Part shown: positions 15,498 to 34,478 of the stretch, one piece after another
How positions within the stretch are numbered: the stretch's first letter is position 1
Layout of the letters: each line of letters starts with the position of its first letter
Assembly: GCA_047602405.1 (NCBI GenBank)
Contig: JASGHJ010000001.1
Location: forward strand, 1,920,001 to 1,984,000
Length of the DNA stretch: 64,000 nt
Source of the DNA: Anaeromyxobacteraceae bacterium
GTDB taxonomy: Bacteria > Myxococcota > Myxococcia > Myxococcales > Anaeromyxobacteraceae
Reading direction: 5' to 3'
Translations under genes and position numbers: made by a program
Notes under the pieces: model-generated
What the model was told of the DNA's origin: nothing
Database searches by the model: none
The model's input: only the letters and a program-made list of their open reading frames with translations

Positions 15498-16289
15498 TCA
15501 ACTCCTCAACCGCCTCGCGAGCTCCCGCGTCGCGAGCCCGAGGTCGAGGTCCGCGACGAGCAGCCCCGCCTCGCCGTACGGCTGCCACGCGAGCAGCGTC
15601 CCGTCGGGCTTCACGATCGCGGAGGTCGTCGGCGAGCCCGCGCCGGCGAAGTTCACGCTCGCGATCCAGACGGTGTTCTCGGCCGCCCGGCAGAACAGCG
15701 CCTTCTCGTGGAAGCTGTTCGCCTCGTCGGCGAACCGCGCCGGGCGGTAGGAACCGGGCTCCGCCTCGCCGAAGTGCGGGTGGAGCACGAGCTGGGCGCC
15801 GCGCACGGCGGCCCAGCGCACCGTCTCCGGATACCGCCAGCCCTCGTGGCAGATCGCGACGCCGAAGGTGACCTCGCCCACCGTGAACACGTGGCGCTCG
15901 GTGCCGGGCGTGAACTGGCCGTCCTCGCTGGGGTCGAGCTGGACCTTGTCCTGCCAGCCGACGATCGCGCCGTCGGCGTCGGTCACCCGCGTCGTGATCC
16001 GGAGCGCGCCGTCCACGAGCCGCTCCGTGCCGAGCACGACGGCGACCCTGGCCTTCGCCGCGGCGCGGTCGACGGCGGCCCAGGCGCGGCCGAGGAACTC
16101 AGGGTCCGGCGGCGGGAGGGCGCGCGCCGGCGTCCGGTAGCCGGGGACGTAGCTCTCCGGGAAGCAGATGACCCCGGCGCCGCGGTGGCCGGCCTCCAGG
16201 ATCGCCGCCTCGGCACGCTCGACGGACTCCGCGGGCGAGGCCGGGAAGGGGAGGTTGGCGAGGGCGAGGCGGAGCGTCGGGGCGGGCAT
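15498..16289 (-). CDS. carbon-nitrogen hydrolase (nitrilase superfamily)
   Basis: Catalytic E (FPE), K (DKVQL) and C (ICHE). Confidence 0.9.
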   Translation of the reverse strand: MPAPTLRLALANLPFPASPAESVERAEAAILEAGHRGAGVICFPESYVPGYRTPARALPPPDPEFLGRAWAAVDRAAAKARVAVVLGTERLVDGALRITTRVTDADGAIVGWQDKVQLDPSEDGQFTPGTERHVFTVGEVTFGVAICHEGWRYPETVRWAAVRGAQLVLHPHFGEAEPGSYRPARFADEANSFHEKALFCRAAENTVWIASVNFAGAGSPTTSAIVKPDGTLLAWQPYGEAGLLVADLDLGLATRELARRLRS

Positions 16290-16299
16290 GCCCGGAAGG

Positions 16300-17623
16300 C
16301 TACCGCGCCGGCGCGGGCGGCGTCTCCAGGTCGGGCGGCGCGGCGCCCGACCTCGCGCGCAGCCGCGCCTCCGCGCTCGTCTCGAGGATGAGCCGCGCCC
16401 CGCGCCCGAAGGTCAGGTAGTGCCAGGCCCAGGTGAGGATCACGGCGATGCGGTTCCGGTAGCCGATGAGGAACCAGACGTGGACGAAGAGCCAGGCGAA
16501 CCAGGCGAGGAGGCCCGTCAGCCGCAGGCCGGCGAACTCGGCGACGGCGTGCGCGCGCCCGACGGTCGCGAGGTTGCCCTTGTCGAAGTAGGCGAACGCC
16601 GTCGTGGACTGCCCCTGGACCTGGTTCCAGATGTTGCGCGCGGCGTGGCGTCCCAGTCTGCAGCGCGGCGGGCGCCACGCCGGGGACCGGGCGGCCGTCC
16701 TTGCGCTTCACGGCGGTGAGGTCGCCCACCACCTGGATCTCCGGATGGCCGGGGACGGTGAGGTCGGGCTCCACCAGCACGCGGCCGGCGCGGTCGAGCG
16801 GGACCCCGAGCCCCCGCGCGAGCGGCGACGCCTGCACGCCGGCGGCCCAGAGCACCGTGCGCGCCTCGTAGCGCGTCTCCCCCACCGAGACGCCCCGCGG
16901 GTCGATGCCGGTCACGAGGGCGCCGGTGTGCACCTCCACGCCGAGCTCCACGAGCGAGCGGCGCGCGGCCTCCGAGCTCCTCGGGTCGAACGCGCCCAGC
17001 AGGCGGTCCGCGCCCTCGAGGAGGATGACCCGGGCGTCCGCGCTCGCGATGGCGCGGAAGTCGCGCGCGAGCGTGTACCGCGAGATCTCGGCGAGCGAGC
17101 CGGCGAGCTCGACGCCGGTGGGGCCGCCGCCGACCACCACGAACGAGAGCAGCGCGGCGCGGCGGGCGGGGTCCTGCTCGCGCTCGGCGCGCTCGAAGGC
17201 GGTGAGCACGCGGCGGCGGATCTCGACGGCGTCCTCGACGGACTTCAGGCCGGGCGCGAGCGGCGCCCACTCGTCGCGGCCGAAGTAGGAGTGCGTGGCG
17301 CCGGCGGCGACGATGAGGTGGTCGTAGGAGAGGGTGTAGCCGTCGGTGAGCCGGATGCGCCGGGCGGCGGGCTCGACCGCCTCGACGTCGGCGAGCACGG
17401 TGCGGGCGTTCGGCTGGCCCGCGAGCACGTGGCGGATCGGCGCCGCGATGTCGGACGGGTTCAGCGCGGCGGAGGCCACCTGGTAGAGCAGCGGCTGGAA
17501 GAGGTGGTGGTTCTTGCGGTCGACGAGGATCACGTCGACGGGGGCGTTGCGCAGGTTGCGGGCGGCCTCGAGGCCGCCGAACCCGCCGCCGATGATGACG
17601 ACGACCGGGCGCTTGGCGTTCAT
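16300..17623 (-). CDS. ndh: type II NADH:quinone oxidoreductase, +1 frameshift near 16652
   Basis: GGGFGG, HLFQPLLYQVA and GGGPTGVELAG motifs; removing one base restores GRHAARNI...YFDKGNLATVGR...AWLFVH up to the TAG at 16300. Confidence 0.9.
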
Positions 17624-17763
17624 GGTCAGCCCATCTCTGTCGGCATCGCCGCGTCGCGTCAACGCCCGGGAGCGACAAAGGAGGCGGTGACGGACGTGTG
17701 CGGGCGGGTTAGATGACGCCTGGACGAAAGCGGGCAACCGCTGGACACCCGTCCGGGTACAAC

Positions 17764-18663
17764 ATGGCGCTCCGCTACCCCATCCGCGCGGTCTCGAAGC
17801 TCACGGGCATCTCCGTCGACACGCTGCGTGCGTGGGAGCGGCGCTACGGCGTCGTGGAGCCCGAGCGCGACGAGCGGGGCCGGCTCTACTCCGAGGCGGA
17901 CGTCGAGCGCCTGAAGCTGCTCCGGAGCGCGGTGCAGGCCGGCCACGCCATCGGGCGCGTCGCCGGGCTGCCCGTCGCCGAGGTGCGGGCGCTGCTCGCG
18001 CGCGGCGTCGAGCGCGTCGAGCCGCCGGCGGCGGCCGCGCCGGTGGACCTCTCGGCGCTCCAGAAGGCGGTCGAGTCGTTCGACGGCGCCGCGTTCCGGC
18101 GGGAGCTCTCGCGGCTCGCGGCGGTGCTGCCCGCGCGCGCGTTCGCGCGCGAGGTGGCGCTGCCCTTCATGCACCTCGTCGGCGAGGCGTGGCACGAGGG
18201 CAAGCTCACCATCGCGCAGGAGCACATGGTCTCGGCCGAGCTGCGCAGCCTCCTCGGCGCGCTCGCGCGGCTGCACCCCATCCCGGAGTCGGCGCCGCGC
18301 CTCGTGCTCGCGACGCCGGAGGGCGACCTGCACGAGCTCGGCACGCTCGCCGCCGCGCTCGTCGCCTCGGCGGCGGGGCTCGGCGCGGTCTACCTCGGGC
18401 CGGGGCTGCCCGCCGAGGAGATCGTCGGCGCCGCGCGGCGCACCGGCGCGCGCGCGGTGGTGCTCGGGCTCTCCGGCGGCGGCGCCGCGCCGGCCTCCGA
18501 GGCCGTGGCCGGCGCGGTCGCGCGCGAGCTGCCGGAGGGCGTGGAGCTGTGGCTCGGCGGCCCGGCCGCGCACGCCGCCGCGATGGCCGCGGGGCCGCGG
18601 GCGGTGGCGCTGCCGGACTTCGAGGCGTTCGAGAAGGCGGCCGCGCGGCTCAGGGCGGGCTGA
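17764..18663 (+). CDS. MerR-family regulator with cobalamin-binding domain (CarH/LitR-like)
   Basis: TLRAWERRYG HTH; W-x9-EH (WHEGKLTIAQEH); DLHELG and YLGP B12-binding motifs. Confidence 0.9.
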   Translation: MALRYPIRAVSKLTGISVDTLRAWERRYGVVEPERDERGRLYSEADVERLKLLRSAVQAGHAIGRVAGLPVAEVRALLARGVERVEPPAAAAPVDLSALQKAVESFDGAAFRRELSRLAAVLPARAFAREVALPFMHLVGEAWHEGKLTIAQEHMVSAELRSLLGALARLHPIPESAPRLVLATPEGDLHELGTLAAALVASAAGLGAVYLGPGLPAEEIVGAARRTGARAVVLGLSGGGAAPASEAVAGAVARELPEGVELWLGGPAAHAAAMAAGPRAVALPDFEAFEKAAARLRAG

Positions 18664-18774: not shown

Positions 18775-19542
18775 TCAGTGCTTCGACCCGTCCGCGTGCG
18801 TGTGCTCCTCGGGCTGGTGCGAGTGGCCCGGCTGGCCGAGCGCGTTCCGGTGCTTCAGCGGACCGCGGAGGTCGGCGAGCCAGCCGACCCACTGGTCCAT
18901 GCCGGCGCCGGTGCGGGCCGAGACCTCGATGACGCGCGGCTTCGGCATCACGCGGGCGAGCGCGTCGTGCACGGCCTTCATGTTCACGTCGAGGTGCGGG
19001 ACGAGATCGCACTTCGTGAGGAGCACCAGGTCCGCGGCCTTGAACATCACCGGGTACTTGAGCGGCTTGTCCTCGCCCTCGGTCACCGAGAGGACGACGA
19101 CGTTCGCGCGCTGGCCGAGGTCGTAGATCGCCGGGCAGACGAGGTTGCCGACGTTCTCGATGAAGAACACGTCGAGCTCGCGCCAGGGGAAGTCGTGCAC
19201 CGAGCGGTGGACGAGCTCGGCGTCGAGGTGGCACGCCTGGCCGGTCGTGATGGCGCGCGACGGGATGCCGGCCTTCTCGAGGCGGCGGGCGTCGTTGTCG
19301 GTGGCGAGGTCGGCCGAGACCGCGCCGAGCTTCCAGCCCTTCGACGCGGCGGCCTTCGCGGTCGCCTCGAGCACGGCGGTCTTGCCGGCGCCCGGGGAGC
19401 CCATGAGGTTGAGGGCGAGGACGCCCGCCTCCTCGAAGTGCTCGCGGTTGTGCCGGGCGGTGCGGTCGTTGCCGGCGAGGATCTTCTCGTGCAGCTCCAC
19501 CGGGACGAGCTCGGAGTCGCCACAGCCACAGGTCGTGCACAT
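18775..19542 (-). CDS. hypB: hydrogenase nickel incorporation GTPase HypB
   Basis: MCTTCGC, GSPGAGKT, CHLDA, ENVGNLVCP and EGEDKPLKYP motifs. Confidence 0.97.
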   Translation of the reverse strand: MCTTCGCGDSELVPVELHEKILAGNDRTARHNREHFEEAGVLALNLMGSPGAGKTAVLEATAKAAASKGWKLGAVSADLATDNDARRLEKAGIPSRAITTGQACHLDAELVHRSVHDFPWRELDVFFIENVGNLVCPAIYDLGQRANVVVLSVTEGEDKPLKYPVMFKAADLVLLTKCDLVPHLDVNMKAVHDALARVMPKPRVIEVSARTGAGMDQWVGWLADLRGPLKHRNALGQPGHSHQPEEHTHADGSKH

Positions 19543-19544
19543 TT

Positions 19545-19889
19545 CTACGGTACCTCCATCTCGATGCCGTCCAGCATGAGCGCGTCGCCGCCTTCGTCCA
19601 GCTTGGCGGGCCGGTCGCAGTCCGGGCAGCGCAGGATCGCCCCGCGCGCCATGGGCTTCTGGCAACCCGGGCAGGACCAGGTCGCCTCGATCTTCTTCAG
19701 GGTGAGGGTCGCCTCCGCGCACATCGTGCCCGCGCGGAAGGTGTCGTAGGCGGTCTGGAAGAGCTCGGGGTCGACGCCCGCCATCGATCCCACGCGCACG
19801 TGGAGCGACACGATCCGCGTCGCCTGCCGCTTCCGGGCTTCCTCCTCCACGCGGGAGACGAGGGCCTCGACGAGAGAGTATTCGTGCAT
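19545..19889 (-). CDS. hypA: hydrogenase nickel metallochaperone HypA
   Basis: MHE N-terminus and two CxxC motifs. Confidence 0.95.
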   Translation of the reverse strand: MHEYSLVEALVSRVEEEARKRQATRIVSLHVRVGSMAGVDPELFQTAYDTFRAGTMCAEATLTLKKIEATWSCPGCQKPMARGAILRCPDCDRPAKLDEGGDALMLDGIEMEVP

Positions 19890-19920
19890 GCGGTTTGACT
19901 GGACCGGCCCTGGGGGCCGG

Positions 19921-21057
19921 TCAAGCCACATCCTTCAGGTCGGGGACGCCCCCGTAGGTGTGCCAGATCCGGCAGGTCCCTTCCATCGAGACCATGCAGG
20001 CGCCCACGGGGTTCTCCGGGTTGCAGCCCTTCTGGAAGAGCGTGCAGTCGGAGGGGTTCTTGAGGCCCGCCATGATGTCGCCGCAGATGCACTGCGAGGC
20101 GAGCTCGTTCGGCGCGTGGTCCCAGAGCTCGTGCACGCGGATCTCGAACCGCTTTCGCGCGTCGACGTGCGCGAACTCGTCGGTGAGCCGGAGGTTGCCG
20201 TTCGGGATGTGCGCGATGCCGCGCCAGCGGCCGCCGTGGAGCCGGAACACCTTCCAGAGCTTCTCCTGCGCGGCGGCGTTGCCCGCGGCGGAGACGCAGC
20301 GCGGGTAGAGGTTCTCGACCGCCGGCCGCTTCTCCTTCACGAGCTCGACGAGCTTCACGAGCGCCCCGAGCACGTCGAGCGGCTCGAAGCCGGCCACGAC
20401 CACCGGCAGCTTGTGGCGCGCGACGAAGGGGAGGAACACGTCGGCGCCGGTGATGGAGGCGGCGTGCCCGGCGGCGAGGAAGCCCTCGACCTTGTTCTCG
20501 GGCATCTCCGCGACGATCTCCATCGCGGGCGGGATGTACTTGTGGGCCGACAGCACCGAGAAGTTCTTCGGCACGCCCGCGAGCACGGCGGCGGCGGTGG
20601 CGACCGCGGTGGTCTCGAAGCCGGAGGCGAAGAACACCACCTCCTCGTCCGGGTGCTTCTCGGCGATCTCGACCGCCTGCAGCACCGAGTAGACGCTGTC
20701 GACCTTGCCGCCCTCGCCGACCGCGTCGGCGAGCGAGCGGGACGAGCCCGGCACGCGCAGCATGTCGCCGTAGGTCGTGATGCGGACGCCCTGGCGCGCG
20801 AGCCAGACCGCCTCGTCGATCTCCGGGCAGTCGGTCACGCAGACCGGGCAGCCCGGGCCCATGATCACCTGCAGCTGCCGCGGGAACGCGGCGCGCAGGC
20901 CGAAGCGGGCGATCGCCTGCTCGTGGCTCCCGCAGACGTGCATCACCGAGACCGGCCGGCCGATGTCGTCGACGAGGCGCTGAAGGGTCTCGGCGAGCTT
21001 CTTCGCGCGGACCGGATCGCGGAACTTCAGCTCCTTCGTGACGTCGGCGGGGGCCAT
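19921..21057 (-). CDS. hypD: hydrogenase maturation protein HypD (distal copy)
   Basis: CGSHE, GPGCPVC, GFETT and GACMVS.EGTC motifs. Confidence 0.96.
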   Translation of the reverse strand: MAPADVTKELKFRDPVRAKKLAETLQRLVDDIGRPVSVMHVCGSHEQAIARFGLRAAFPRQLQVIMGPGCPVCVTDCPEIDEAVWLARQGVRITTYGDMLRVPGSSRSLADAVGEGGKVDSVYSVLQAVEIAEKHPDEEVVFFASGFETTAVATAAAVLAGVPKNFSVLSAHKYIPPAMEIVAEMPENKVEGFLAAGHAASITGADVFLPFVARHKLPVVVAGFEPLDVLGALVKLVELVKEKRPAVENLYPRCVSAAGNAAAQEKLWKVFRLHGGRWRGIAHIPNGNLRLTDEFAHVDARKRFEIRVHELWDHAPNELASQCICGDIMAGLKNPSDCTLFQKGCNPENPVGACMVSMEGTCRIWHTYGGVPDLKDVA

Positions 21058-21060
21058 GGT

Positions 21061-21915
21061 TCACCTTCCCTGGAAGCGCGGGGGACGCTTCCCGAAGAAC
21101 GCCTCGACCCCCTCCGCGAAGTCCGCCTGGTCGGCGGAGCGCGCGAGGTGCTCGAGCTCGACGTCGAGGTGGTGATCCAGCCGGTCGGCCTGGGCGCCCT
21201 GGGTGAGGAGCGCCTTCGTCATCGCGAAGGTGCCGCTCGGACCCTCGGCGAGCCGCCGGGCGAGCGCGGCCACGCGTCCGTCGAACTCGGCGACCGGGTA
21301 GACCTCGTTCACGAGCCCCCACTCGAGCGCGGTGCGCGCGTCGAGGCGCGGGTTGAGGAGCGCCATGCCCATCGCGCGCCGCAGGCCGACGAGCTTCGGC
21401 AGGAAGAACGTGGAGGACTCGGCGCCCGAGAGCGCAGTCTTCGCGTAGGCCCACTCGAACGCGGAGCGCTCGGAGGCGACCACGAGGTCGCAGCACATGG
21501 CGAGCCCGAGCCCGCCCGCCGCGGCGACGCCGTCCACCGCGGCCACCCACGGCTTCCCGGAGCGGCGGATCTCCGAGATGGTCGAGTGGAGGTACTCGAG
21601 GATCTGCTTGAAGACCGCGCCGAAGCCCTTCGGCGCGGGGCGCTGTCCGGGGGCGAGGTAGCCGAGGTCCTCCTGGGCGCCGCCCGCCTTGATGTACTTG
21701 AGGTCGGCGCCGGAGCAGAACGCCTTCCCGCCCGTGCCGCGCAGCACGACCGCCCGCACCGAGGGGTCGCGCGCGAGCTTGAGCCCCGCGGCCCTCAGGT
21801 CCCGCGCCATCGTCACGTCGAGCGCGTTGAAGCGGTCCGGGCGGTCCATCAGCAGGAACGCCGCGGCGCCGTCGCGCTCGATGCGGATGAAGCTCTGGGC
21901 GGGCGCGTCGGCCAT
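21061..21915 (-). CDS. crotonase/enoyl-CoA hydratase-isomerase family protein inside the hyp operon
   Basis: RPDRFNAL, AFCSGADL and AAVDGVAAAGG motifs; ATG overlaps the hypE stop (TGATG). Confidence 0.9.
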   Translation of the reverse strand: MADAPAQSFIRIERDGAAAFLLMDRPDRFNALDVTMARDLRAAGLKLARDPSVRAVVLRGTGGKAFCSGADLKYIKAGGAQEDLGYLAPGQRPAPKGFGAVFKQILEYLHSTISEIRRSGKPWVAAVDGVAAAGGLGLAMCCDLVVASERSAFEWAYAKTALSGAESSTFFLPKLVGLRRAMGMALLNPRLDARTALEWGLVNEVYPVAEFDGRVAALARRLAEGPSGTFAMTKALLTQGAQADRLDHHLDVELEHLARSADQADFAEGVEAFFGKRPPRFQGR

Positions 21916-22937
21916 CAGCAGATCCGGGGGAGGAGCTCGCCCTCCGGCTCCGCCAGCATGCGGCGGCCGAAGCCGGTGTCGAGGATGACCGAGCCGGGGC
22001 GCTCGGCGATGGCGGTCGCGATGATCGCGGCGTCCCTGCCCTGCGGGTGGGCGCGGAGCGCCTCGAGGACCTTCGCGGCGGACCGCTCGCGCACCGCGAT
22101 GACCGCCTTGCCCTCGTTCGCGACGAGCAAGGGGTCGATGCCGACCATGTCGCCCGCCGCGCGGACCTCGGCGCGGACCGGGACGCTGCCCTCGTCGATG
22201 ATGATGCCGACCTTGCCCTTCGCGGCCATCTCGTGGAGCACGCCCGCGACGCCGCCGCGGGTCGGGTCCTTCATGGCGCCGACGTCGTCGCCCGCGACCT
22301 TCAGGACCTCGCGGATCATGCCGTTGAGCGGCGCGACGTCGGAGCGGAGGTCGCCCTCGAGGCGCAGGTCGTGGCGGCGGGTCATGATCGCCATGCCGTG
22401 GTCGCCGATGTGGCCGGTGACGATGATCCTGTCGCCGGCCTTCAGGCCCGCGTCGGAGATGACGCGGCTCGTGAGCGCGACGCCGGTCGTGTTGAGCACG
22501 ATCCCGTCGACCTCGCCCTTGCCCATGACCTTCGTGTCGCCGGTCACGATGGGCGCGTTCGCCTCGGCGGCGGTCGCCTTCATCGAGGCGACGATCTTCT
22601 CGAGGTCCTCGCGCGGGAAGCCGTCCTCGAGGATCACCGCGCAGGTGAGGGCGAGCGGCTCGGTCGCGCCCATCATCGCGAGGTCGTTCACGGTGCCGGA
22701 CACCGAGATCCGCCCGATGTCGCCGCCCGGGAAGAAGATCGGGTGGACGACGTGCGAGTCGGTGGTGACGACGAGCCACCGGTCGCCGACGCGGATCGCC
22801 GCGCCGTCGTCCATCTCGGCGAGCCCGATCCCGTCCACCGGCGAGGCGAGCTGCAGGAACACGTCCTCGATGAGCTGGCGCATCGCGCGCCCGCCCGAAC
22901 CGTGCTTGAGCCCGATCCGGGCGCCCGGCCGATCCAT
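21915..22937 (-). CDS. hypE: carbamoyl dehydratase HypE
   Basis: HGSGG, TTDSHVV, GTVNDLAM, DPTRGG motifs and C-terminal PRIC. Confidence 0.97.
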   Translation of the reverse strand: MDRPGARIGLKHGSGGRAMRQLIEDVFLQLASPVDGIGLAEMDDGAAIRVGDRWLVVTTDSHVVHPIFFPGGDIGRISVSGTVNDLAMMGATEPLALTCAVILEDGFPREDLEKIVASMKATAAEANAPIVTGDTKVMGKGEVDGIVLNTTGVALTSRVISDAGLKAGDRIIVTGHIGDHGMAIMTRRHDLRLEGDLRSDVAPLNGMIREVLKVAGDDVGAMKDPTRGGVAGVLHEMAAKGKVGIIIDEGSVPVRAEVRAAGDMVGIDPLLVANEGKAVIAVRERSAAKVLEALRAHPQGRDAAIIATAIAERPGSVILDTGFGRRMLAEPEGELLPRIC

Positions 22938-22939
22938 CG

Positions 22940-24121
22940 TCACGCCTCCACTTTCCGAGTCGCAGCCTGAGGTGTCGCAGCCTTCGTGTCCGGCGCCCGC
23001 AGGTCGGGCGCGCCGCCGTAGGTGTGCCAGATGCGGCACTGGCCCTCGGAGGAGACCATGCAGGCGCCCACCGGCGCCTCCGGCACGCAGGCCTTCCCGA
23101 ACAGCGCGCAGTCGTTCGGCGTCGAGAGGCCCAGCATGATCGAGCCGCAGATGCAGCCCATGGCCTCGGCGCTGCGGGCGTCGTCGCGGACGCCCGAGGT
23201 GTCGATCGTGAACCGCTTGCGCGCGTCGAGGTGCGCCCAGTCGGGCTTGAGATCGAGGTTGCCGCCCTTCACCATGGCGATGCCGCGCCAGGTGCCGTCG
23301 ACGACGTCGAAGACCTTCCACAGCGACCGCTGCGCGGGGAGGTTGCCCTCCTTCGACACGCAGCGCGGGTAGACGTTCGCGACCTCGGGCTTCCCCTCGC
23401 GCACGAGGTCGGTGACCTTCACGAGCGAGGCGAGGATGTCGAGGGGCTCGAACCCGGCCACCGCCACCGGTGAGCCGGTCTTCCGCGCGAAGGGCTCGAA
23501 GATCTCCCAGCCGGTGATGATCGCGGCGTGGCCGGCGGCGAGGTAGCCGTCGATGCGGGTCTCGGGGCTCGCGGCGACGATCTCCATCGCGGCCGGCACG
23601 TACTTGTGCACCGACAGGATCGAGAAGTTCGCGGGCGGGTTCGTGAGGGCGACGGCCGCCGTGGCGACCGCGGTGGTCTCGAAGCCGGAGCCGAGGAACA
23701 CGACCTGCTCGGCCGGGTGCGCCCTCGCGAGCTCGACCGCCTGGGACACCGAGTAGACGATGTCGACCTTCGCGCCGAGCCCCTTCGCGTCGCCGAGCGA
23801 CTTCGAGGTGCCGGGCAGGCGGAGCATGTCGCCGTAGGTGCAGACCCGGACGCCGGCGAGCGCGAGCGCGACCGCCTCGTCGACCTCCGGCGCGTCGGTC
23901 ACGCAGACCGGGCAGCCGGGGCCCATGATGAGGTCGAGGCCGGGCGGCAGCACCGCGCGCAGGCCGAAGCGGGCGATGGCCTGCTCGTGGCTGCCGCACA
24001 CGTGCATGATCGCGACCTCGCGGCCGATCGCGTCGACGTTCCGGGCGAGCGCGTCGGTGAGCGCGCGCGCCTTCGCGGGGTCGCGGAACTTGAGCTCCGC
24101 GGTGAGGTCCTTCCCGCTCAC
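22940..24121 (-). CDS. hypD: hydrogenase maturation protein HypD (proximal copy)
   Basis: CGSHE, GPGCPVC, GFETT and GACMVSSEGQC motifs; GTGA overlap with hypC. Confidence 0.96.
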   Translation of the reverse strand: MSGKDLTAELKFRDPAKARALTDALARNVDAIGREVAIMHVCGSHEQAIARFGLRAVLPPGLDLIMGPGCPVCVTDAPEVDEAVALALAGVRVCTYGDMLRLPGTSKSLGDAKGLGAKVDIVYSVSQAVELARAHPAEQVVFLGSGFETTAVATAAVALTNPPANFSILSVHKYVPAAMEIVAASPETRIDGYLAAGHAAIITGWEIFEPFARKTGSPVAVAGFEPLDILASLVKVTDLVREGKPEVANVYPRCVSKEGNLPAQRSLWKVFDVVDGTWRGIAMVKGGNLDLKPDWAHLDARKRFTIDTSGVRDDARSAEAMGCICGSIMLGLSTPNDCALFGKACVPEAPVGACMVSSEGQCRIWHTYGGAPDLRAPDTKAATPQAATRKVEA

Positions 24122-24411
24122 TTCGCGTCCTTGCCCGCCGAGATCTCGCCGCGGACGTCCTCGGCCATGAGGTCGAGCTCGGCCTTCGCGCCGGTGACGT
24201 CCAGGATCTGGTCGAAGAGGGCGAGCGTCTCCTGGACCTCGCTCTCCGGGATGCGGCGGATGGCGAAGCCCACGTGGTTGAGCACGTAGTCACCCACCTG
24301 CACGGGCTCGTCGACGATGTCGAGGCGGAGCTCCTTCTTCACGCCGAAGAAGTCGACCGTCGCGTTCATGCCGTCGATGGCGAGGATCTTGCCGGGGACG
24401 CCGAGGCACAT
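24118..24411 (-). CDS. hypC: hydrogenase chaperone HypC
   Basis: MCLGVPG and GDYVLNHVGFAI motifs. Confidence 0.97.
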   Translation of the reverse strand: MCLGVPGKILAIDGMNATVDFFGVKKELRLDIVDEPVQVGDYVLNHVGFAIRRIPESEVQETLALFDQILDVTGAKAELDLMAEDVRGEISAGKDAK

Positions 24412-24428: not shown

Positions 24429-26802
24429 TCAGGCCGATGCGTCGGCCACGATGGCCTGCCCGAGCGCGATCCCCCCGTCACCGGGGGGGACGCGGCCGTG
24501 CAGGTATACCCGAAAATCGCTCCCCAGTTCCCCGAGGATCCCCTCGGCGAGCCGGGCGTTCTGGAAACAGCCGCCGGTGAGCACCACCGGCAGCCGCCCG
24601 GCCTGCCGCGCGGCGTCGCGGACGAGCGCGGCGCCGGCCTTCGCCAGGGCGGCGTGGAACCGCGCCGAGATGGCGCCCGGCGAGGCCTCCGCCGCGGCGT
24701 CGGCGGCGAGCGCCCGCCAGAGCGGCCTGAGGTCGAGCGAGGTGAGCGGGCCGGCGCGGCCGAGGTCGAAGGGGTAGGCGCCCGGCTCCGACGGATCCGC
24801 CGCCGCGTCGAGCGCGATGGCGACCTGGCCCTCGAACCGGGCGTCGCCGCGGCCGAGCGCGAGAGCCCCCGCGGCGTCGAAGACGCGGCCCACGCCGTGG
24901 GCGAGCGGGGCGTTCACGCCACCCGGAGATCATCCGCCGGACGGTCTCGAGCTCGGCGGGCGGCACGGCGCGGAAGAGGGGGAGCGACTCCAGCGGAGGC
25001 GCGCCGTCGAACGCGTCGAGGAGCGCCGCGAGCGCCGCGCGCCAGGGCTGGCGCACGGCGCGATCGCCACCGGCGAGCGCGAGCGGGCGGAACGTGGCGA
25101 GCCGCTCGAAGCGGCCGGCCTCGGCGAGGAGCAGCTCGCCGCCCCAGGCCGCGCCGTCGGTGCCGAGGCCGGTGCCGTCCCACGCCAGCGCGAGCACCGG
25201 CCCGTCGAGGCCGTGCTCGGCCATCGCCGCCGCGGCGTGGGCGTGGTGATGCTGCACCTCCACGAGCGGCACGCCGAGGGCGGCGGCGCGCTCGCGGGCG
25301 TACCGGGTGGACAGGTAGAGCGGGTGGAGGTCGCAGGCGACGACCTCGGGGCGCACCGCGAGGAACGTCTCGAGCCGCGCGATGGCGGCCTCGAAGGAGG
25401 CGTAGGTCTCGAGGTCGTCGAGGTCGCCGACGTGCGGCCCGAGCGTCGCCTCGTCGCCGCGGGCGAGGCAGAAGGTGTTCTTGAGCTGGGCGCCGACCGC
25501 GAGCACCGGGCGGCGGACCCTGCGCGAGAGCACGACCGGGCGGGGCACCCAGCCGCGCGAGCGGCGCATGACGAGCGGCTTCCCGGCGACGACGCGGGTG
25601 ACGCTGTCGTCGGCGCGCGACGCGATGGGCCGGTCGTGCACGAGGAACAGGTCGGCGATGCCGGAGAGGCGGCGGACCGCGTCGTCGTCCTCGAACGCGA
25701 TCGGCTCGTCGGAGAGGTTGCCGCTCGTCATCACGAGGGGCCTCGCCACGGCGGCGAGGAGCAGGTGGTGCAGCGGCGCGTAGGGGAGCATCACCCCCAC
25801 GAGCGGGCTCCCCGGGGCGAGGCCGGCCGCGAGCCGCGCCCCGTCTTCGAGCGGCACGGCCCGCCGCCGCACGAGCACGATCGGCCGCTCCACCGAGGCG
25901 AGCAGCGCCTCCTCCGCCGGCCCGAGCTCCGCGACCGCGCGCGCCTCCTGGAGGTCGCGCACCATGATCGCGAGCGGCTTCTCCTCCCGGTGCTTCCGCT
26001 GCCGGAGGAGCGCCACGGCCGCGTCGGAGGTGGCGTCGCAGGCGAGGTGGTACCCGCCGATGCCCTTCACGGCGGCGATCTGGCCCGCCACGAGCGCGCG
26101 GGCGACCTCTTCGATGGCGTGCTTCGACTCCCGCTCATGCTGAGCGTAGGCCCCCCGGTGCTCCGCACCGGGGGCCGAAGTCGAAGCACGCTCAGGATGA
26201 GCGGCCAATGAAGGACGGACCACCCACACCTTCGGCCCGCACGCCGGGCACGCGTTCGGCTGGGCGTGGAAGCGGCGGTCGCCGGGGTCGCCGTACTCGC
26301 GCGCGCAGGCGGGGCACATCGTGAACCCGGCCATCGTCGTGGCCGGCCGGTCGTACGGGACGTCGAGGGCGATGGTGAACCGCGGGCCGCAGTCGGTGCA
26401 GTTCGTGAACGGGTAGCCGTGGCGGCGGTCGGCGGGGTCGAGGAGCTCGCGCCGGCACGCCTCGCAGGTGCCGAGGTCGGGCGGGATGGCCACCCGGCGC
26501 TCGGTGGCGCCGCCGCTCTCCACGATCTCGAACGCGGCGGCGGCCTCGGCGGGGATCGGCGAGGCCTCGAGGGTCTCGATGACCGCGGCGGGCGGCCGGT
26601 CGGTGCGGAGCCGGGCGGTGAAGGCCTCGAGCGCCGGCGCGGGCGCGAAGGCCTCGATGGTCACGCCGGCGGCGTCGTTCCGGACGCGGCCCGAGACGCC
26701 CGCCTCGCGGGCGAGCCGGTAGACGAACGGCCGGAAGCCGACGCCCTGCACGGTGCCGGTCACGCGGATGCGCCGGCCTTCTCTGGTCTCGCTCTCGGAC
26801 AA
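24429..26802 (-). CDS. hypF: carbamoyltransferase HypF, +1 frameshift near 24922 (TTG start inferred)
   Basis: GTVQGVGFRP, two zinc fingers, KGIGG, QHHHAH and DGTG motifs; C-terminal GRVFDA...GGCFQN...DGGIALGQA continues in the next frame. Confidence 0.93.
26118..26204. repeat. REP-like palindromic element within the hypF coding sequence
   Basis: Two interleaved inverted pairs (12 bp perfect; 16 bp with 1 mismatch) plus an inner hairpin; homologous to 37043-37095. Confidence 0.75.
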
Positions 26803-26965: not shown

Positions 26966-27025
26966 AGGCTTCGTGCGCGCACCGCCCAGGCGGTGACCCT
27001 CGACGGGCCCTGGGCGGGCGGCTCA

Positions 27026-28522
27026 GGGACCGTGAAGGAATGGCCCGGCGGTAGCGGAGGCGGCTCCCGGGCTGGCCGTCGCGGGCGGTGGGCGGGGTGA
27101 GAGGCCGACGACGGCCCTCACGCCTGTGGGCGGGATTCGTCGAGGACGATCGATCGGCTTCGCCCGATGTCAGGTCGCCGCGCTCGCGGCGACGACCCGC
27201 AGGAGGTTGAAGGTCAGGGCGGCGAGCAGCACAACCGTCTTCACTTTCACGATGCCGCGGACCTTGAGGCGATCGAGCCCTCGGTGTCCTCGAAGATCGG
27301 CGTTGGTCCGTTCGGCGAGCACGCCACGCTGGACGTAGATGCGCTTCGCATCCTCGGTTCCCATCCGGACGCGCCAGGCGGCTACGTTCGGTGTGTCGCC
27401 GCGCTTGGGGGCGTACCGGTCTACGGTGTCGTTCTTCGGCTTGGGGGTCGGCGCGTAGATCGTGGCGCCGCGGTGCGAGACGACCTCGATGTTCTCGAGG
27501 CTCGTGAAGCCGCCATCCACCAGGTACTCGTCCGGCACCTTGCCTGTGCGCCGCTCGATCTCATCGAGCATCGGCACGACGTGGGGTTGGTCCGTCCCGT
27601 GGTTCGTCACGTCGACGCCCACGATGATCCCGCTCTCGTCGGTTGCGAGCTGGACGTTGTATGCGGGCCGGAAGCCACCGTCCGCCATCTTCATCACCCT
27701 GCTCTCGGCGTCCGTCGTGCTGACGCGGATCTCCTTGCGCCGCTTGGCCTCGGAAGGCTTCCTCGCGTCGCGCTCCGCACGATCCCGCTCGATGATCGGC
27801 AGTTCCTTCAAGGCCGCCTCGATCGCGGCCTGGCGAGCCGTCGCCGCGCGCTCCTTCGCGGCCGAGACCCGCTTCGACGACGCGGACGGGTCCGACTCGA
27901 ATCTCTCGGCGCAGCTTACGAACCTGTTGCTCCGCCTCGTCGCGGCAGCGCTCCAGGGACTGCCGCCGCCGAAAACTCGCTGCACCAGCGCTCGCTCGGA
28001 CCTTCATCCCGTCCTGCGCGACACGCCGCAACTTCACCACGCCTTCCTTCATGAGGACGGCGAGCACCTGGGTCAAAAGGCCATCGAGCTTCTTCCCGTG
28101 GTCCACGCGGAAGTCCGCGAGCGTGTGGTAGTTCACCGGGACTCCGCCGCAGATCCACCGATACGGAGCATCCCGGACGCAGAGCTGCTCCAGCAGCCGC
28201 GCGCTACCGACACCCTCCGAGTTCGCGAACAGCCACAAGGCGAGCATCACGGCGGGATCCGTGGCGGGGCGCCCAGCGATGCTGCCTCGCGCGCGGATCT
28301 CGTCGTAGAACGCCGACAGGTCGAGGCGCTCGACCATGGCCCAGATCCCACGCACCGGGTGGTCGTCGGGCACCATCGCCTCGAGGTCCGTCGGCTGCAA
28401 CGCCAGCTGATTCCGGACCGGCCTCAGCACTCGCGGCGCGTCGTCGTCGCTCACGCCACCAGAAGATCACGGCCAGGGGGCCCCAGTCCATGGGACACCC
28501 CGGCCGATTCCTTCACGCTCTC
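27026..28522 (-). mobile_element. IS1182-family insertion sequence
   Basis: IRs GGGACCGTGAAGGAAT and (reverse complement) GAGAGCGTGAAGGAAT match 14/16; TCA duplicated on both sides (CTCAG if the ends are trimmed by 1 nt); single transposase gene. Confidence 0.85.
27170..28454 (-). CDS. IS1182-family DDE transposase, +1 frameshift near 27901
   Basis: DHPVR...LDLS, GRPA.DP, SAR, YHTLADFR, QDG.KVRA, STTDAESRVMK, PAYNVQ, VDGGF and R...AE motifs. Confidence 0.9.
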
Positions 28523-29050
28523 TCAGTCGAGCCGGGGCTTCTCCCACCAGAGATCGGGCTCGAGCGGCTGGGCCCGGAGCCTGGGCGTCACGCCGACCTT
28601 CTCGAGCTCCATCAGGACGCCCTTCACGGCGCGCGGGATGGCCGCCCGGACGACCGCCGAGAGCGTCTCGTTCGACTCGACCTGCTCCGGGATGACGCCG
28701 ACGAGCTTGAACACCTTCGGCAGCACCTCGTTGAACTCGGCGTTGAGGAGCGCCTCGCGCACGCCGGGCTCGTGCGCGCTCACCACGCCGGGCATCGGCC
28801 GCTTGAGGAGCTCGGCCCCGTCGACGATGTGCACCTCGCCCGGCTCGCCCTTCAGCTTCACGGCGTCGATGAGCACGACCGCGTCGCGGTCCATGATGAA
28901 CGTGGTGAGCTCGTAGCCGGGCGTGCCGAAGTCCTCGCAGGTGACGCCCTCGGGGAACTCGTACTGCGCCGCGAGCAGGCGCGCGACGGTGGGGCCGATG
29001 CCGTCGTCGCCGTTGAGGACGTTGCCGATGCCGATGATCGCGACGTTCAC
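28523..29050 (-). CDS. hybD: hydrogenase maturation endopeptidase (HyaD/HybD family)
   Basis: GIGNVL.GDDG.G, D.GT, IDAV and SAHE motifs. Confidence 0.92.
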   Translation of the reverse strand: MNVAIIGIGNVLNGDDGIGPTVARLLAAQYEFPEGVTCEDFGTPGYELTTFIMDRDAVVLIDAVKLKGEPGEVHIVDGAELLKRPMPGVVSAHEPGVREALLNAEFNEVLPKVFKLVGVIPEQVESNETLSAVVRAAIPRAVKGVLMELEKVGVTPRLRAQPLEPDLWWEKPRLD

Positions 29051-29080
29051 GTGAAGCCTCCGCTGCGCAGCCCAGAAAGC

Positions 29081-29114
29081 GAACATCCCGTCCCCTTGCG
29101 AGGACGGGATGTTC
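29081..29114 (-). terminator. hairpin/terminator after the large-subunit gene
   Basis: 13-bp perfect stem GAACATCCCGTCC/GGACGGGATGTTC followed by GCTTTCT on the minus strand. Confidence 0.7.
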
Positions 29115-29160
29115 TAGCCCTTCTGGTTGTCCGAGTGGAAGTGCTGACGGGCTAACCGGC

Positions 29161-30924
29161 TTACAGCACCTTCACCGAGGCGATCTCCTGGCCGTCGGCG
29201 TCCACCGTGTGGATGGCGCACGCGAGGCAGGGGTCGAACGAGTGGATCGTGCGGAGCGCCTCGAGGGGCAGCTTCGCGTCCGCGATCGGGTTGCCGACGA
29301 GGGAGGCCTCGTACGGGCCCTTCTCGCCCTTGGCGTCGCGGGGACCCGCGTTCCAGGTCGAGGGGACGACCGCCTGGTAGTTGTCGAGCTTCATCGACTT
29401 GCCGTCGGAGGAAGCGGAGACGACGCACCAGTGGGAGAGCAGGCCGCGGGGCGCCTCGTGGATGCCGACGCCCTGGTAGACCTTGCCCTTCTCGAGCTTC
29501 GCCATCGGATCGACGAAGATCGAGGTGTCGCCCTTGCCGATGTTCTCGACGAGGAGCTTCCAGTGCTTCAGCGCGAGGTCGCTCATGACGGCCGCGCGGA
29601 TGGCGCGGGCGCCGTGACGGCCGAGCGTGGAGTGGAGGACGGCCGGCGTGAGCTTCACGCCCGCGATCTTCCCGGCGGTCTCGAGCATCCAGGTCGCGTA
29701 CTTCACGAACAGCGGGCTGCCCGTGGCGACGCCGACGAGGACCTGGGCGAGCGGACCGACCTGGACCGGCTTGCCCTCGAGGCGAGGCGCCTTGACCCAG
29801 GAGTACTTGTCCGGGGCGGGCGTCTCCTGCTTCCAGTCGGCGACCTTCTGGAGCTCGTCACCCGGGAGCGGCTTCGTCTCGCCCTTCCACGGGTGCTTCG
29901 CGTCGGCGCCCTGGTAGAGCGAGTGGGCGACGGACTCGGTGACGTTCTCGCGGAAGTACTTGTCCTTCCAGTCCGCGATCTTCTGGACCTTGCCGAGGTC
30001 GGCGTTCCAGATGATGCCGCCGGGCAGGTCGAACTGCGTCATCTTGGCGTCGGTCGGGAGATCCGGGATCGCCATGTAGTTCGTGACGCCCGCGCCGTAC
30101 TTCAGCCAGTCCGGGTAGCTCGCCGCGATGGCGGCCACGTCGGGCAGGTAGACCTGCTTGATGAAGGTCGCGACCTCCTCGAAGAGCTCCTTGACCTTGT
30201 ACAGGCGCTCCATGTTGAGGGTCGCCGGGTTGTCCAGGTTGATCGCGTTGGCGACGCCGCCGACCGCGAGGTTCTGGATGTTCGGCGTCTTCGACCCGAG
30301 GATCGCGACGATCTGGTTGGCCTTCCGCTGCACCTCGAGGGCCTGCAGGTAGTGCGCGACGGCGAGGAGGTTCACCTCGGGCGGGAGCTTCATCGCCGGG
30401 TGGCCCCAGTAGCCGTTCTGGAAGATGCCGAGCTGGCCCGCGGCCACGAAGCTCGCCACCTTCTCCTTCACGGCGGTGAGCTGGTGGACGGAGTTGCCCG
30501 CCCACTGCTCGCCGAGCTTGTCGGCCAGCGCCGCGGCCTTCGCCGGATCGGCCTTGAGCGCGGAGACCACGTCCACCCAGTCCAGCGCGGACAGGTGGTA
30601 GAAGTGCACGATGTGGTCGTGCAGCGCGTGGGCCGTGATGATGAGGTTGCGGATCAGCTGAGCGTTCAGCGGGATCTCGAGGCCGAGCGCGTCCTCGACG
30701 GAGCGGACCGACGCGATCGCGTGCACGGTCGTGCACACGCCGCAGATGCGCTGCGTGAAGACCCAGGCGTCACGGGGATCGCGGTCCTTGAGGATGACCT
30801 CGATGCCGCGCCACATGGTGCCGGCGGACCACGCGTTCTTCACGACGCCCCCGTCGACCTCGCAGTCGATGCGGAGGTGACCCTCGATGCGAGTGACAGG
30901 GTCGATGGTGATGAGCTTGCCCAT
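29161..30924 (-). CDS. hybC: [NiFe]-hydrogenase large subunit, Hyb-type
   Basis: DPVTRIEGH; L1 QRICGVCTTVH; L2 SFDPCLACAIH followed by a cleavable extension; no Sec. Confidence 0.97.
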   Translation of the reverse strand: MGKLITIDPVTRIEGHLRIDCEVDGGVVKNAWSAGTMWRGIEVILKDRDPRDAWVFTQRICGVCTTVHAIASVRSVEDALGLEIPLNAQLIRNLIITAHALHDHIVHFYHLSALDWVDVVSALKADPAKAAALADKLGEQWAGNSVHQLTAVKEKVASFVAAGQLGIFQNGYWGHPAMKLPPEVNLLAVAHYLQALEVQRKANQIVAILGSKTPNIQNLAVGGVANAINLDNPATLNMERLYKVKELFEEVATFIKQVYLPDVAAIAASYPDWLKYGAGVTNYMAIPDLPTDAKMTQFDLPGGIIWNADLGKVQKIADWKDKYFRENVTESVAHSLYQGADAKHPWKGETKPLPGDELQKVADWKQETPAPDKYSWVKAPRLEGKPVQVGPLAQVLVGVATGSPLFVKYATWMLETAGKIAGVKLTPAVLHSTLGRHGARAIRAAVMSDLALKHWKLLVENIGKGDTSIFVDPMAKLEKGKVYQGVGIHEAPRGLLSHWCVVSASSDGKSMKLDNYQAVVPSTWNAGPRDAKGEKGPYEASLVGNPIADAKLPLEALRTIHSFDPCLACAIHTVDADGQEIASVKVL

Positions 30925-30938
30925 GGAAATGACCTCTA

Positions 30939-32219
30939 TTACCGGTGGGCCGCGGCGGCGCCGCTGCCGACGTTGGAGTGCGCGCGGTCTTCCACGACCA
31001 CGACAGGGAACAGGCGGGACACGACCACGAAGATGGCGATGCCGACGGCGGCCATGCCGATGGTCACGATGGACTCACCGAGCGACGGGAAGTACTGCCA
31101 CCCCGCCTCCCACGGCTTGCCGTTCGGCTGCCAGCCGACCGGACGGTAGAACGTGAGGTACGTGTCCACCCGGTAGAAGGCCCCGGCCATCACGGCCATG
31201 AACGCGGCGAGGAAGAGCTGCCCGCGGTTCGAGGCGACCTTCGTCGACATGAACATGAAGGCCGGCACGAGGAAGAGCGCCATCTCGAAGAGGAACCAGA
31301 TTGTCGGGAAGTTGAACCCGAGGAAGCTGAGCTTCGAGACCAGCACGTCCTGGCCGTTCACGCCGATCGTGTACTTCCCGACGAAGAGCTCGCCGATGCG
31401 GAGGGCGGCGTAGAGGAAGAGCAGCCCGCCGTTCACCTTGGAGAGGGACACGAAGAGCTTCTGGTCGACCTTCGCGTTCCAGGTCATCCCGAGGATGTTG
31501 GTCAGCACCACCACCGTCCCGTACCCCATCGAGAGGCAGGAGATGAGGAAGAGGGTGGGGAGCAGCCCGTTGTGCCAGAGCGGGTGGATCTTCGGCCCCG
31601 CGATGAGCATCAGGCCGCCCAGCGAGCTCTGGTGCATGGTCGGGAGGACGATGGCCGCCGCGATGAAGAAGGGCATCGCCTTCGCCATCACCGGCTTCCA
31701 CTTCTTCCCGAACGCCTGCCAGCCCTTGTCCTGGGCGACCTCGGCGGCGTCGAGCGCCGACGGGATGACCTCGATCCAGAGCACGCAGACGTACGCCATC
31801 ACGCAGACGGCGACCTCGAGCAGCGCGGAGGACAGGTTCCAGTACGGGATCCAGGGGAGCCAGTACGCGTTCCACGGACGGCCGAGCGCGATGACGATCG
31901 AGCTCGCGCCGAGGGTGTACGCGATGGCGCCCGTGAGCACGGCCGGGCGGACCAGGCCGTGGTACTCGCCCTTGTTGAGCGCGTAGCAGAGGAGGCCGAC
32001 CGCGAACGCGCCCGCGCCGATGCCGGTGAAGACGACGACGTTGACGGGCTCCCAGATGCCCCAGGTGAACCCGTCGGTCATCATCGACACGGGGCCGATG
32101 CCCACCGCGAAGCGGTAGATCATGACCACGGCCGCGACGCCGAACACGGCGAGCAGCTTCTTCATGAGCGGGTCGAGGAGAACGCCCCCGATCGCCTTGG
32201 GATGCTCGTGCGCGCTCAT
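30939..32219 (-). CDS. hybB: hydrogenase-2 integral membrane subunit (NrfD family)
   Basis: WGIW, LGRPW, LLEVAVC and LPTMHQSSLG motifs; many TM helices. Confidence 0.92.
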   Translation of the reverse strand: MSAHEHPKAIGGVLLDPLMKKLLAVFGVAAVVMIYRFAVGIGPVSMMTDGFTWGIWEPVNVVVFTGIGAGAFAVGLLCYALNKGEYHGLVRPAVLTGAIAYTLGASSIVIALGRPWNAYWLPWIPYWNLSSALLEVAVCVMAYVCVLWIEVIPSALDAAEVAQDKGWQAFGKKWKPVMAKAMPFFIAAAIVLPTMHQSSLGGLMLIAGPKIHPLWHNGLLPTLFLISCLSMGYGTVVVLTNILGMTWNAKVDQKLFVSLSKVNGGLLFLYAALRIGELFVGKYTIGVNGQDVLVSKLSFLGFNFPTIWFLFEMALFLVPAFMFMSTKVASNRGQLFLAAFMAVMAGAFYRVDTYLTFYRPVGWQPNGKPWEAGWQYFPSLGESIVTIGMAAVGIAIFVVVSRLFPVVVVEDRAHSNVGSGAAAAHR

Positions 32220-33206
32220 TACTTGCCCTCCCCGTGGGCTTCCTTGTCGCTGTTCTTCTTGATGACGAACGCGAGGCCCGCGTACAGCGCGATGGGCGTG
32301 ATGCCGTACAGGTACGGCGCGTGGGAGACGCCCTCGGAGAAGGCGCCGCTCGACTTCGCCGGCAGCTCCGGCAGGCCGAGCTGCTTGAAGTTGACGCCCG
32401 TCGGCGCGAGGTAGAGCACCTGGGTGCCGCCGCCCTCGGTCTCGCCGTAGATGTGCGGGTTGTACTTCTTGGGATTCCGCCGCCTGGCGCGCCTTCGCGA
32501 TCGCGAGGAGCTCCTTGCGCGTCCCGTAGATCACCGCCTGGGCCGGGCAGACCTCGCAGCAGGCCGGGTTGGCGACCGCGTACGCGGTCCCCTTCTTCTT
32601 CTCCGGCTCACGGCGGTGGTTGCACAGCTCGCACTTCACGATGAGCGGGATCGGGTCGTCCCACTGGAACTTGGGGACGTTGAACGCGCAGCCGATCTGG
32701 CAGTAACGGCAGCCGACGCAGAGCCCGCGGTCGTAGATCACGATCCCGGTGCCCTTCACCTCGGCGTACGGGCGGTCCTCGTGCTTGAAGAGGTCCCGCT
32801 TGCCGTGACCCTCCTTGTGGAGCGCGCCCATCATGCAGACGGACACGCAGGAGGGATCCACGCAGTGCATGCACTGCTGCTTCATGTAGGCGTGCTGGTC
32901 GCCGTCGACGAAGGCCTTGATGATGTTCTTCGTCGAGCCGTTGAGGTCCTGCGGCGCGTCGTAGACGCCGCCCTCGAAGGCGGCGTCCTTGCCCGCGGGC
33001 GTGACCTTGTCAGGCGGCAGGTTGTTGCTGACCTTGCACGCGGACTGGCAGGCGCGGCAGCCGACGCACTTGGTGGCGTCGAAGAGCATGCCGACGGCAT
33101 CCTCCTCGACCTCGTGCGTGTGCCGGGCCTCCGCGACGACGGGCAGGCTGGCGGCCGCGCCAGCGACCGCCGCTCCCTTCAGGAGGTCTCTCCGTGAGAT
33201 CGACAT
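32219..33206 (-). CDS. hybA: hydrogenase-2 ferredoxin-type subunit, +1 frameshift near 32475
   Basis: Tat signal SRRDLLK; four CxxCxxC-type clusters; IYGETEGGGTQVLYL and a C-terminal TM in the shifted frame. Confidence 0.9.
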
Positions 33207-33209
33207 GGA

Positions 33210-34317
33210 CTACTCCTTCTTGTCGTCCGCCGAGAGCTTCTTGGAGGTCGCGACGCCCATGCCGGCGATCACGCCGACCGCGGCAGCGCCAACGCCCACC
33301 GCGACCGTCGCGGCGCCGTTGCCGAGCACGCCGTGCTCGGGGTTGATGGCCGGGTAGGCCATCGGGGCCGTGGGGTTCGCGATCGGCATGTTGGTGTAGA
33401 TCGGCACGTTGAAGACGATGCCCTGCTCGGTGCAGCCGACGCAGGGGTGGCCGATGCCGATGGGCCACGCGCCGGGCATCTCGCAGAAGTCGAGCAGCGA
33501 GCAGTTGGCGTGGGTCTGGGGGCCCTTGCAGCCGAGCTTGTAGAGGCACCAGCCGGCGCGGTGACCCTCGTCACCGAACGCCTGCGCGAAGCGGCCGTTG
33601 TCGAAGTGGGCGCGGCGCGGGCAGTCGTCGTGGATCACGCGCGCGTACGCGAACGTCGGGCGGCCGAGCTCGTCGAGCTTCGGCAGCGTGCCGAACGTCG
33701 CGAACTGGAGCACGGTGCCGAGCAGGTTGTACGGGTTCGCCGGGCAGCCGGGCAGCGTGACGACCGTCTTGCCCTTCAGGATTTGCGGGGCGCCCGTCGC
33801 GCCGGTCGGGTTCGGCGCCGCGGAGGGCACGCCGCCCCAGGAGGCGCAGGAGCCGATCGCGATGACCGCGGCGGCCTTCTCGGCCACCTTCTTCAGCGTG
33901 TCGACGGCCTTCTTGCCGCCGACCTGGCAGTAGATGCCGCCGTCCTTCTCCGGGATGGCGCCCTCGACGATGAGGACGAAGCCACCCTTCTCCATCGCGG
34001 CCTCGAGGTTGGCCTCGATTCTGGTGGCCGGCCGCCGCGTGCAGCGTCTCGTGGTAGTCGACCGAGACGAGGTCGAGCACGAGCGAGCCCACGTCGGGGT
34101 GCGCGGTACGGAGCAGCGACTCCGTGCAGCCCGTGCACTCCTGGAAGTGCAGCCAGACGACCGAGGGCTTCTTACCCTTGGCCACATTCTCCGCCATCTT
34201 CTCGCCTGCCCAAGCGGGGAGGCCGACGGCGGCTGCTGCGGTGGTGCACACCTTGATGAAGTCTCGGCGGGAGACGCCCTTGGTCTCCAGCTCGGGGATC
34301 ACGGCAATAGGGTCCAT
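33210..34317 (-). CDS. hybO: [NiFe]-hydrogenase small subunit, +1 frameshift near 34019
   Basis: Tat signal SRRDFIK; ECTGCTES, GSCASWGG, PGCP, HDDCPRR and CLYKLGCKGP motifs; C-terminal TM. Confidence 0.93.
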
Positions 34318-34478
34318 TCCGTCCTCCGGGTGCGCGGAGACTACCGGGTCGAGTTCAAATTGCAACGCCGCAAAATTCGGGAATTTTTCGGCTCCCGGAG
34401 GACGCAAAGTCTTCGCGCGACACTCTGTCGCAGCAAACCCCGGGTGCATGAGCGAGCGCCTCGCACATCCGGATTTCG

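Follow-up and report, generated by a model that had tools for sequence, protein, structure and literature searches.

A stand-alone crotonase is encoded within the hydrogenase-maturation (hyp) operon of an Anaeromyxobacteraceae bacterium, in the 64,000-nucleotide stretch of DNA analyzed here (the window), and the family to which it belongs is confined to hydrogenase-maturation operons. We favor, at a probability of roughly 0.6, the reading that the protein is a formyl-thioester decarbonylase that would feed CO to a HypD of its own, judged from its sequence to be like the C-terminal half of HypX without being a HypX. How organisms other than HypX-bearing aerobes obtain the CO ligand is named in passages of a 2025 review as the most pressing open question (PMC12134894), and the crotonase family offers a small, directly assayable candidate enzyme for it. 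The literature covered, most subscription journals being outside its scope, yielded no description of a stand-alone crotonase in hyp operons. The crotonase and its surroundings in the window are as follows:

21061..21915, minus strand: hyp-linked crotonase of 284 amino acids, a candidate formyl-thioester decarbonylase; residues of note are Tyr157, Glu166, Gly164 and Ala133 and, invariant in a helix, Glu107, Tyr108, His110 and Glu115
19921..21057, minus strand: hypD2, the HypD type adjoining the crotonase (His283, Asn286), 64% identical to hypD1
19887..21912, unstranded: crotonase+hypD2 block of 2,026 bp, spanning from the start codon of the crotonase to that of hypA, with a 3-nt ambiguity
21915..22919, minus strand: hypE, whose stop overlaps the crotonase start; its own start is taken from the translation
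22940..24121, minus strand: hypD1, the resident HypD of the genus, without His283 and Asn286
24118..24411, minus strand: hypC
24429..26802 (upper end approximate), minus strand: hypF, split over two frames in this assembly, with an extra base near 24925
19545..19889, minus strand: hypA
18775..19545, minus strand: hypB
28523..34187, minus strand: hydrogenase-2-like structural genes, comprising the small subunit, hybA/hybB, the large subunit (29161-30924) and a maturation protease

Along the minus strand the order is thus small subunit, hybA/hybB, large subunit, protease, an insertion sequence, hypF, hypC, hypD1, hypE, crotonase, hypD2, hypA and hypB. The crotonase ATG and the hypE stop overlap as TGATG, and the crotonase TGA is followed after 3 nt by the ATG of hypD2 at 21057; the gene position and the motifs quoted for the protein in the initial annotation were both borne out. 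The protein matches Pfam ECH_1 (E 2.7e-47) and no other domain over its 284 residues, and its neighbors are, by domain, HypE (AIRS domains) and HypD. The best NCBIfam model for the large subunit is hydrogenase 2, at 794 bits and under the cut-off of 969, and the closest named loci are those of Anaeromyxobacter sp. (81-83% identity). A promoter and terminator scan gave nothing above chance, and short pieces on the crotonase in metatranscriptome contigs from four runs, with small word shares, show neither transcription nor habitat.

Several other features of the locus were recorded. Relative to a close genome (G118), frameshifts are present near 24925 (hypF), 29053 (protease region) and 32471 (hybA/hybB); the small-subunit gene, hybO, near 33900-34450 is also split over two frames, and purU, at another place in the genome, is split as well. 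Strains in two runs do not have the extra hypF base. The frameshifts in hypF, the protease region, hybA/hybB and the small subunit are probably assembly indels, or they may be real decay. The insertion sequence, at 26986-28528 between the protease gene and hypF, carries a DDE transposase in two frames and does not occur in G118; a copy 99.8% identical to it lies at G000:C1:1105368. A MerR/B12-binding (CarH/LitR-like) regulator (17713-18663, plus strand) converges on hypB, and divergent from it lies a pyridine nucleotide-disulphide oxidoreductase (15983-17737, minus strand) that seems out of frame near its end. Two more hydrogenase-like clusters in the genome (L132, G000:C2:~833300-838400; L133, G000:C2:~1486000-1491000) read from their translations as one NAD-linked and one membrane-bound energy-converting type, and the products of hypD1 and hypD2 could serve different hydrogenases.

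The resemblance to HypX is concentrated in the active site. Aligned with C. necator HypX (WP_011153943.1; BLASTP E 8e-10, 29% identity over 201 columns), the crotonase places Tyr157 on HypX Tyr439 and Glu166 on HypX Glu449, the same register being obtained with hhalign (probability 96.9); the equivalents in Aquifex aeolicus HypX are Tyr416 and Glu426. Mutation of HypX Tyr439 or Glu449 leads to a HypX-minus phenotype, as stated in sections of a HypX study (PMC6802093). Both residues are invariant in the aligned family members (36/36 and 68/68), and the 9-residue spacing between them is common to the family and four of ten diverse HypX proteins. Specificity was assessed on the 150 best 50%-cluster representatives, of which 5 were dropped for gaps, 32 were family-like and 113 formed the outgroup, the filter having misplaced one row each way. 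Tyrosine occupies column 157 in 82 of these 113 nearest other crotonases, and Tyr157 was rejected on this ground as a HypX signature, so that from the HypX-like motif proposed initially the Tyr/Glu register stands and the supposed rarity of 'AY' does not. Glutamate at column 166, on the other hand, is carried by a single row of the 113, itself a broken member of the family. At position 164 the outgroup has Pro in 93/113 rows, whereas the family and 20/20 HypX rows (every sixth of 120 close matches) have Gly; position 133 is Gly in 111/113 of the outgroup and Ala in the family and again in 20/20 HypX rows. Ala133 corresponds, in a PDB alignment, to Aquifex Ala392, which is described in part of the HypX study as lining the neck round the pantetheine arm (PMC6802093). 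Absent from the crotonase alignment are the Asn-Pro-His before the Tyr and the Tyr-Trp after the Glu of HypX, and the family-only invariant residues Glu107, Tyr108, His110, Glu115 and Glu154 have no HypX counterpart. Two divergent relatives (P0250 and P0251) lack Glu166. The case for a decarbonylase would thus rest on few columns, Tyr157 being common outside the family.

Catalytic residues of better-known crotonases are missing, as had been noted initially and as PDB alignments bore out. Neither member of the classical glutamate pair is present, in contrast with the genome's own hydratases, and the catalytic Pro-Asp of PaaG (D136) is replaced by Gly164-Ala165, in a position where 104 of the 113 nearest relatives carry Asp. 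The protein scores 172 bits against the PaaG model TIGR02280, whose cut-off is 345, and none of the 25 NCBIfam matches listed reached its curated cut-off.

Linkage to hyp genes was examined in genomes and metagenomes. At least 120 relatives share 68-95% identity with the crotonase, many of them named PaaG by their source. A peptide-pattern scan (two exact patterns, one genome per species) found 436 relatives, and hyp or hydrogenase genes were present in all 80 genome loci kept as the best 80 of the 436, which span several phyla. Directly upstream of the crotonase in these loci were hypE (65), a formyltransferase (11), hypD (2) or no gene within 300 nt (2). Myxococcota and Acidobacteriota account for most of the hosts, and the remaining few come from Rokubacteria, Binatota, Methylomirabilota, Planctomycetota, Gemmatimonadota and Chloroflexota. 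Metagenomes were scanned with a distant member as seed, which gave 64 family loci, many of them near-duplicates, and 16 more distant loci that served as PaaG-type controls, 15 of the 16 being recognizably PaaG-type with the Asp. Beside the family loci, hyp genes were present in 55/64 cases, and in 42/45 when the flank measured 1.5 kb or more, versus 0/16 for the controls; the neighborhood survey proposed in the initial annotation therefore came out in favor of hyp linkage. The protein atlas held generic crotonase clusters only, and the plasmid collection no close family member.

These data bear on the possibility that the protein is a PaaG-like enoyl-CoA isomerase whose catalytic acid sits one position away from the usual place and which is a passenger in the operon. 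The closest solved relatives and the database names are indeed PaaG-like, but the TIGR02280 score lies far below its cut-off, the Pro-Asp is absent, and the family is hyp-linked in several gene orders over several phyla, as the PaaG-type controls are not; we regard this explanation as highly improbable.

A few members of the survey merit mention in their own right. One locus carries a transposase-like ORF between hypE and the crotonase (L056:6205-7476). A very acidic family member, about 57% identical (P0393/P0398), suggests a halophilic host. In 15 of the 80 loci (L032:8838-9524 and 14 others) a gene 3' of hypB or of the crotonase encodes a membrane protein whose N-terminal motif is rich in His; this protein gives a weak Pfam match to DsbD_2 only and is probably a nickel transporter.

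Within the order of the window's organism (121 genomes, with 20 candidates scored per genome and kin that are not independent), the gene occurs in 13 genomes, all among the 71 that bear hypD, and in 0/50 hypD-less genomes. It is absent from 58 of the 71 hypD-bearing genomes, including 12/12 of the same genus, and is accordingly optional. The 58 genomes have neither the crotonase nor HypX: the crotonase is not the universal HypX-independent route, and CO supply in organisms with neither protein would stay unexplained. HypX itself was found in one of the 121 genomes, which is without the crotonase, in 0/50 crotonase genomes searched, and not in the window's genome.

The crotonase does not move alone. 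In a same-genus genome (G118, locus L092) that is 92-97% identical over the operon, hypE is joined straight to hypA by TGATG, and the same joint (19886 to 21913, skipping 2,026 bases) is present in contigs of 4/4 DNA runs from four studies; because all of these make the same hypE-hypA joint, the block is exactly crotonase plus hypD2. The initial annotation saw that the crotonase sits beside a hypD, as it does, and missed that the gene travels with a HypD of its own. The arrangement hypE-crotonase-hypD recurs at L001, L003 and L006, two of which have a second hypD upstream. In a HypD tree of 101 rows, hypD1 groups with the crotonase-less HypDs of the genus, and hypD2 is joined (support 99) by five HypDs, each adjoining a crotonase. 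Two residues distinguish the latter type within this HypD subfamily, 12 distant rows having been left out: among HypDs beside a crotonase His283 is found in 72/72 and Asn286 in 70/72, and both are found in 0/17 other HypDs, including hypD1, although 14 of these 17 form one clade and represent few independent events. At further loci both residues were present in 38/38 HypD stretches covering the loop. In both window HypDs (19921-21057 and 22940-24121) the first Cys is embedded in His-Val-Cys-Gly-Ser-His-Glu, and both fall in a subfamily that lies on a long branch from the C. necator-type HypD and holds every crotonase-linked HypD in the tree. HypX binds HypCD, according to portions of the HypX study (PMC6802093), and by analogy we infer that the His283/Asn286 signature may be the sign of a physical crotonase-HypD partnership.

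The same observations lend themselves to a different explanation, in which the crotonase is a maturation factor and partner of HypD for which free formyl-CoA is not the substrate, the C1 unit coming from another carrier or acyl-CoA, or the protein serving as a CoA-binding adaptor that shields Fe-CO on HypD2. The gene is gained or lost with a specific HypD and not with a transferase, the transferase being missing in 69/80 genome loci, and the invariant Glu107, Tyr108, His110, Glu115 and Glu154 suggest other chemistry or an interface. Against this, the Glu/Gly/Ala trio matches the HypX active site and a formyl-THF transferase is repeatedly the direct neighbor, and we consider such a role conceivable but unlikely.

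That neighbor is a PF00551 formyltransferase, found between hypE and the crotonase in 11/80 genome loci, all of Acidobacteriota, and in 27/64 metagenome family loci. It keeps the His of formyl-THF transferases and, in the adjacent copies, the Asp too. The transferase is PurN-like, with an hhalign probability of 8% against the HypX N-terminal domain, and since it barely aligns to that domain the transferase+crotonase pair is not a plain split HypX; simple HypX fission was rejected for the transferase half on the same ground. Of 201 Acidobacteriota genomes, the core crotonase occurs in 9 and the transferase in 9; 8 have both, and in 7 the two are side by side. These counts include the center genome, which was selected because it was known to be positive. 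For 49 of the 69 genomes whose locus is without a transferase, the whole genome was examined: two have a copy at another site, behind a second hypC, and the other 47 have none beyond PurN-level matches. Members of the transferase family away from a crotonase (L085:2880-4015, L086:7889-9017, L154:1172-2310 and L150:1483-2166) are located between hypF and hypB or follow a lone second hypC, in two instances with a radical-SAM-like gene next; they lack the usual Asp before Gly-Pro. Two apparent natural transferase-crotonase fusions (P0396, P0397) were set aside, as they look like frameshift read-through. A search for long forms gave five matches, two of them with both domains (singletons with out-of-frame stretches), which is weak evidence of absence.

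The organism of the window belongs to the majority. Its genome (98.4% complete) contains no dedicated formyltransferase, profile matches being restricted to PurU, PurN and Fmt, so that the missing transferase module reported initially for the window extends to the whole genome. Among formyl-CoA sources, neither Frc nor Oxc scored above cut-off in this genome and neither PFL nor Fhs was found; two unassigned family-III CoA transferases are present. Substrate supply in genomes without the transferase, as here, is the weakest step of the decarbonylase reading. Crotonase-fold thioesterases exist, and this favors a further alternative, namely that the protein is a hydrolase of formyl-CoA, or of a short acyl-CoA, that clears or recycles a C1 by-product of maturation and releases formate instead of CO. 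Of the two mechanisms proposed for HypX, one employs a water activated by Glu, as given in part of the HypX study (PMC6802093), and such a water could attack the thioester instead. A transferase and a hydrolase together would, however, merely duplicate PurU, which is present in the genome, and a hydrolase leaves both the absence of HypX and the HypD signature unexplained, which makes it a very unlikely function.

Under the favored decarbonylase reading, CoA would be bound in the folded crotonase mode, and Glu166 with Tyr157 would take the formyl proton, directly or through a water, to yield CO and CoA, as proposed for HypX. The crotonase would dock on HypD2-HypC, possibly at the His283/Asn286 loop. 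Where the transferase is present, formyl-CoA would come from this partner; where it is missing, as here, a low flux of formyl-CoA might be provided by PurU, PurN or a family-III CoA transferase. Little flux may suffice, because in C. necator about 10 nM CO is enough to outcompete the endogenous precursor, as reported in passages of the 2025 review (PMC12134894). The protein would act as an optional booster, given that close relatives maintain the same operon in its absence, and would probably be useful when O2 limits the default route. One feature of HypX counts against the decarbonylase reading: HypX holds CoA in a cavity common to both of its domains, according to sections of the structural description (PMC6802093), and the lone crotonase domain does not have such a cavity.

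The evidence on descent is divided. A tree of all columns (62 rows, 36 of them from the outgroup) unites the family and the HypX C-terminal domains in one clade (98/93), on which the HypX stem measures 4.2 changes per site. With the motif columns removed, a quick tree places HypX with the family only inside a broader group that includes three PaaG-like rows, and the fit improves when the tree is constrained to leave HypX out (log-likelihood +29, p-AU 0.89). Shared descent and convergence with the HypX C-terminal domain are thus inseparable on these trees. The description of the protein as a half-HypX in the initial annotation accordingly holds for the Tyr/Glu pair and for the transferase gene paired with it in many relatives, but is not supported as to descent, where the sequence is PaaG-like, the tree link is gone without the motif columns and the transferase is PurN-like. 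Four PaaG-like proteins (P0273, P0316, P0317 and P0352) have Gly-Asp for Pro-Asp, the three of them placed in the tree adjoin the family, and they may be evolutionary intermediates.

Two structure models were compared with solved structures. In the first, loop 161-170 has a pLDDT below 50; the best Foldseek matches are PaaG-like (about 33% identity), and HypX is not among the matches listed. The second has a mean pLDDT of 86.7, with 67 for the loop, and superposes on HypX 6J0P with Z 29.3 (rmsd 2.7 Å, 257 residues), on PaaG 3HRX with Z 28.2 (rmsd 1.6 Å, 213 residues) and on its best match, 3P5M, with Z 33.3 (rmsd 1.8 Å, 252 residues). The HypX Z value is within about 1 of that of PaaG and under those of two mycobacterial crotonases; such comparisons of predicted structures would speak to fold, not to function.

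A wider proposal, which we put forward tentatively and at somewhat less than even odds, is that of a second, modular CO-ligand route. A stand-alone decarbonylase would dock on a dedicated HypD subtype through its His283/Asn286 loop and move as a crotonase+HypD cassette, with the formyl group drawn from a recruited PurN-type transferase or from housekeeping C1 metabolism, and would take the place of HypX in uncultured Myxococcota, Acidobacteriota, Rokubacteria and Binatota. Should the family prove to be such a CO-releasing enzyme, a maturation gene would be added to several poorly cultured phyla and a common PaaG misannotation corrected. Strains with 94-97% identity over the operon that differ by exactly the crotonase+hypD2 block constitute a natural plus/minus pair, and the enzyme could become a compact tool for aerobic hydrogenase production.

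Compared with HypX/HoxX (C. necator pHG1; A. aeolicus 6J0P), the protein shares the crotonase domain, with the Tyr/Glu pair, Gly164 and Ala133 in register, a gene placed directly after hypE and, in many relatives, a linked formyl-THF transferase. It differs in being a stand-alone protein of 284 residues, 29% identical and without a fused N-terminal N10-formyl-THF transferase domain, in lacking the Asn-Pro-His and Tyr-Trp of the HypX motif, in having a partner transferase that is PurN-like and here missing, and in traveling with its own HypD type. With PaaG, the 1,2-epoxyphenylacetyl-CoA isomerase (TIGR02280; 3HRX, 6SL9, 4FZW), it shares the best sequence and Foldseek matches, the scaffold and an Ala-Tyr/Phe at 156-157, whereas the PaaG Pro-Asp has given way to Gly-Ala-Glu, the score is half the TIGR02280 cut-off, the neighbors are hyp genes and an insertion of about 15-20 residues follows the first oxyanion loop. 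With the classical enoyl-CoA hydratase it has in common the fold and the first oxyanion motif, but neither catalytic Glu.
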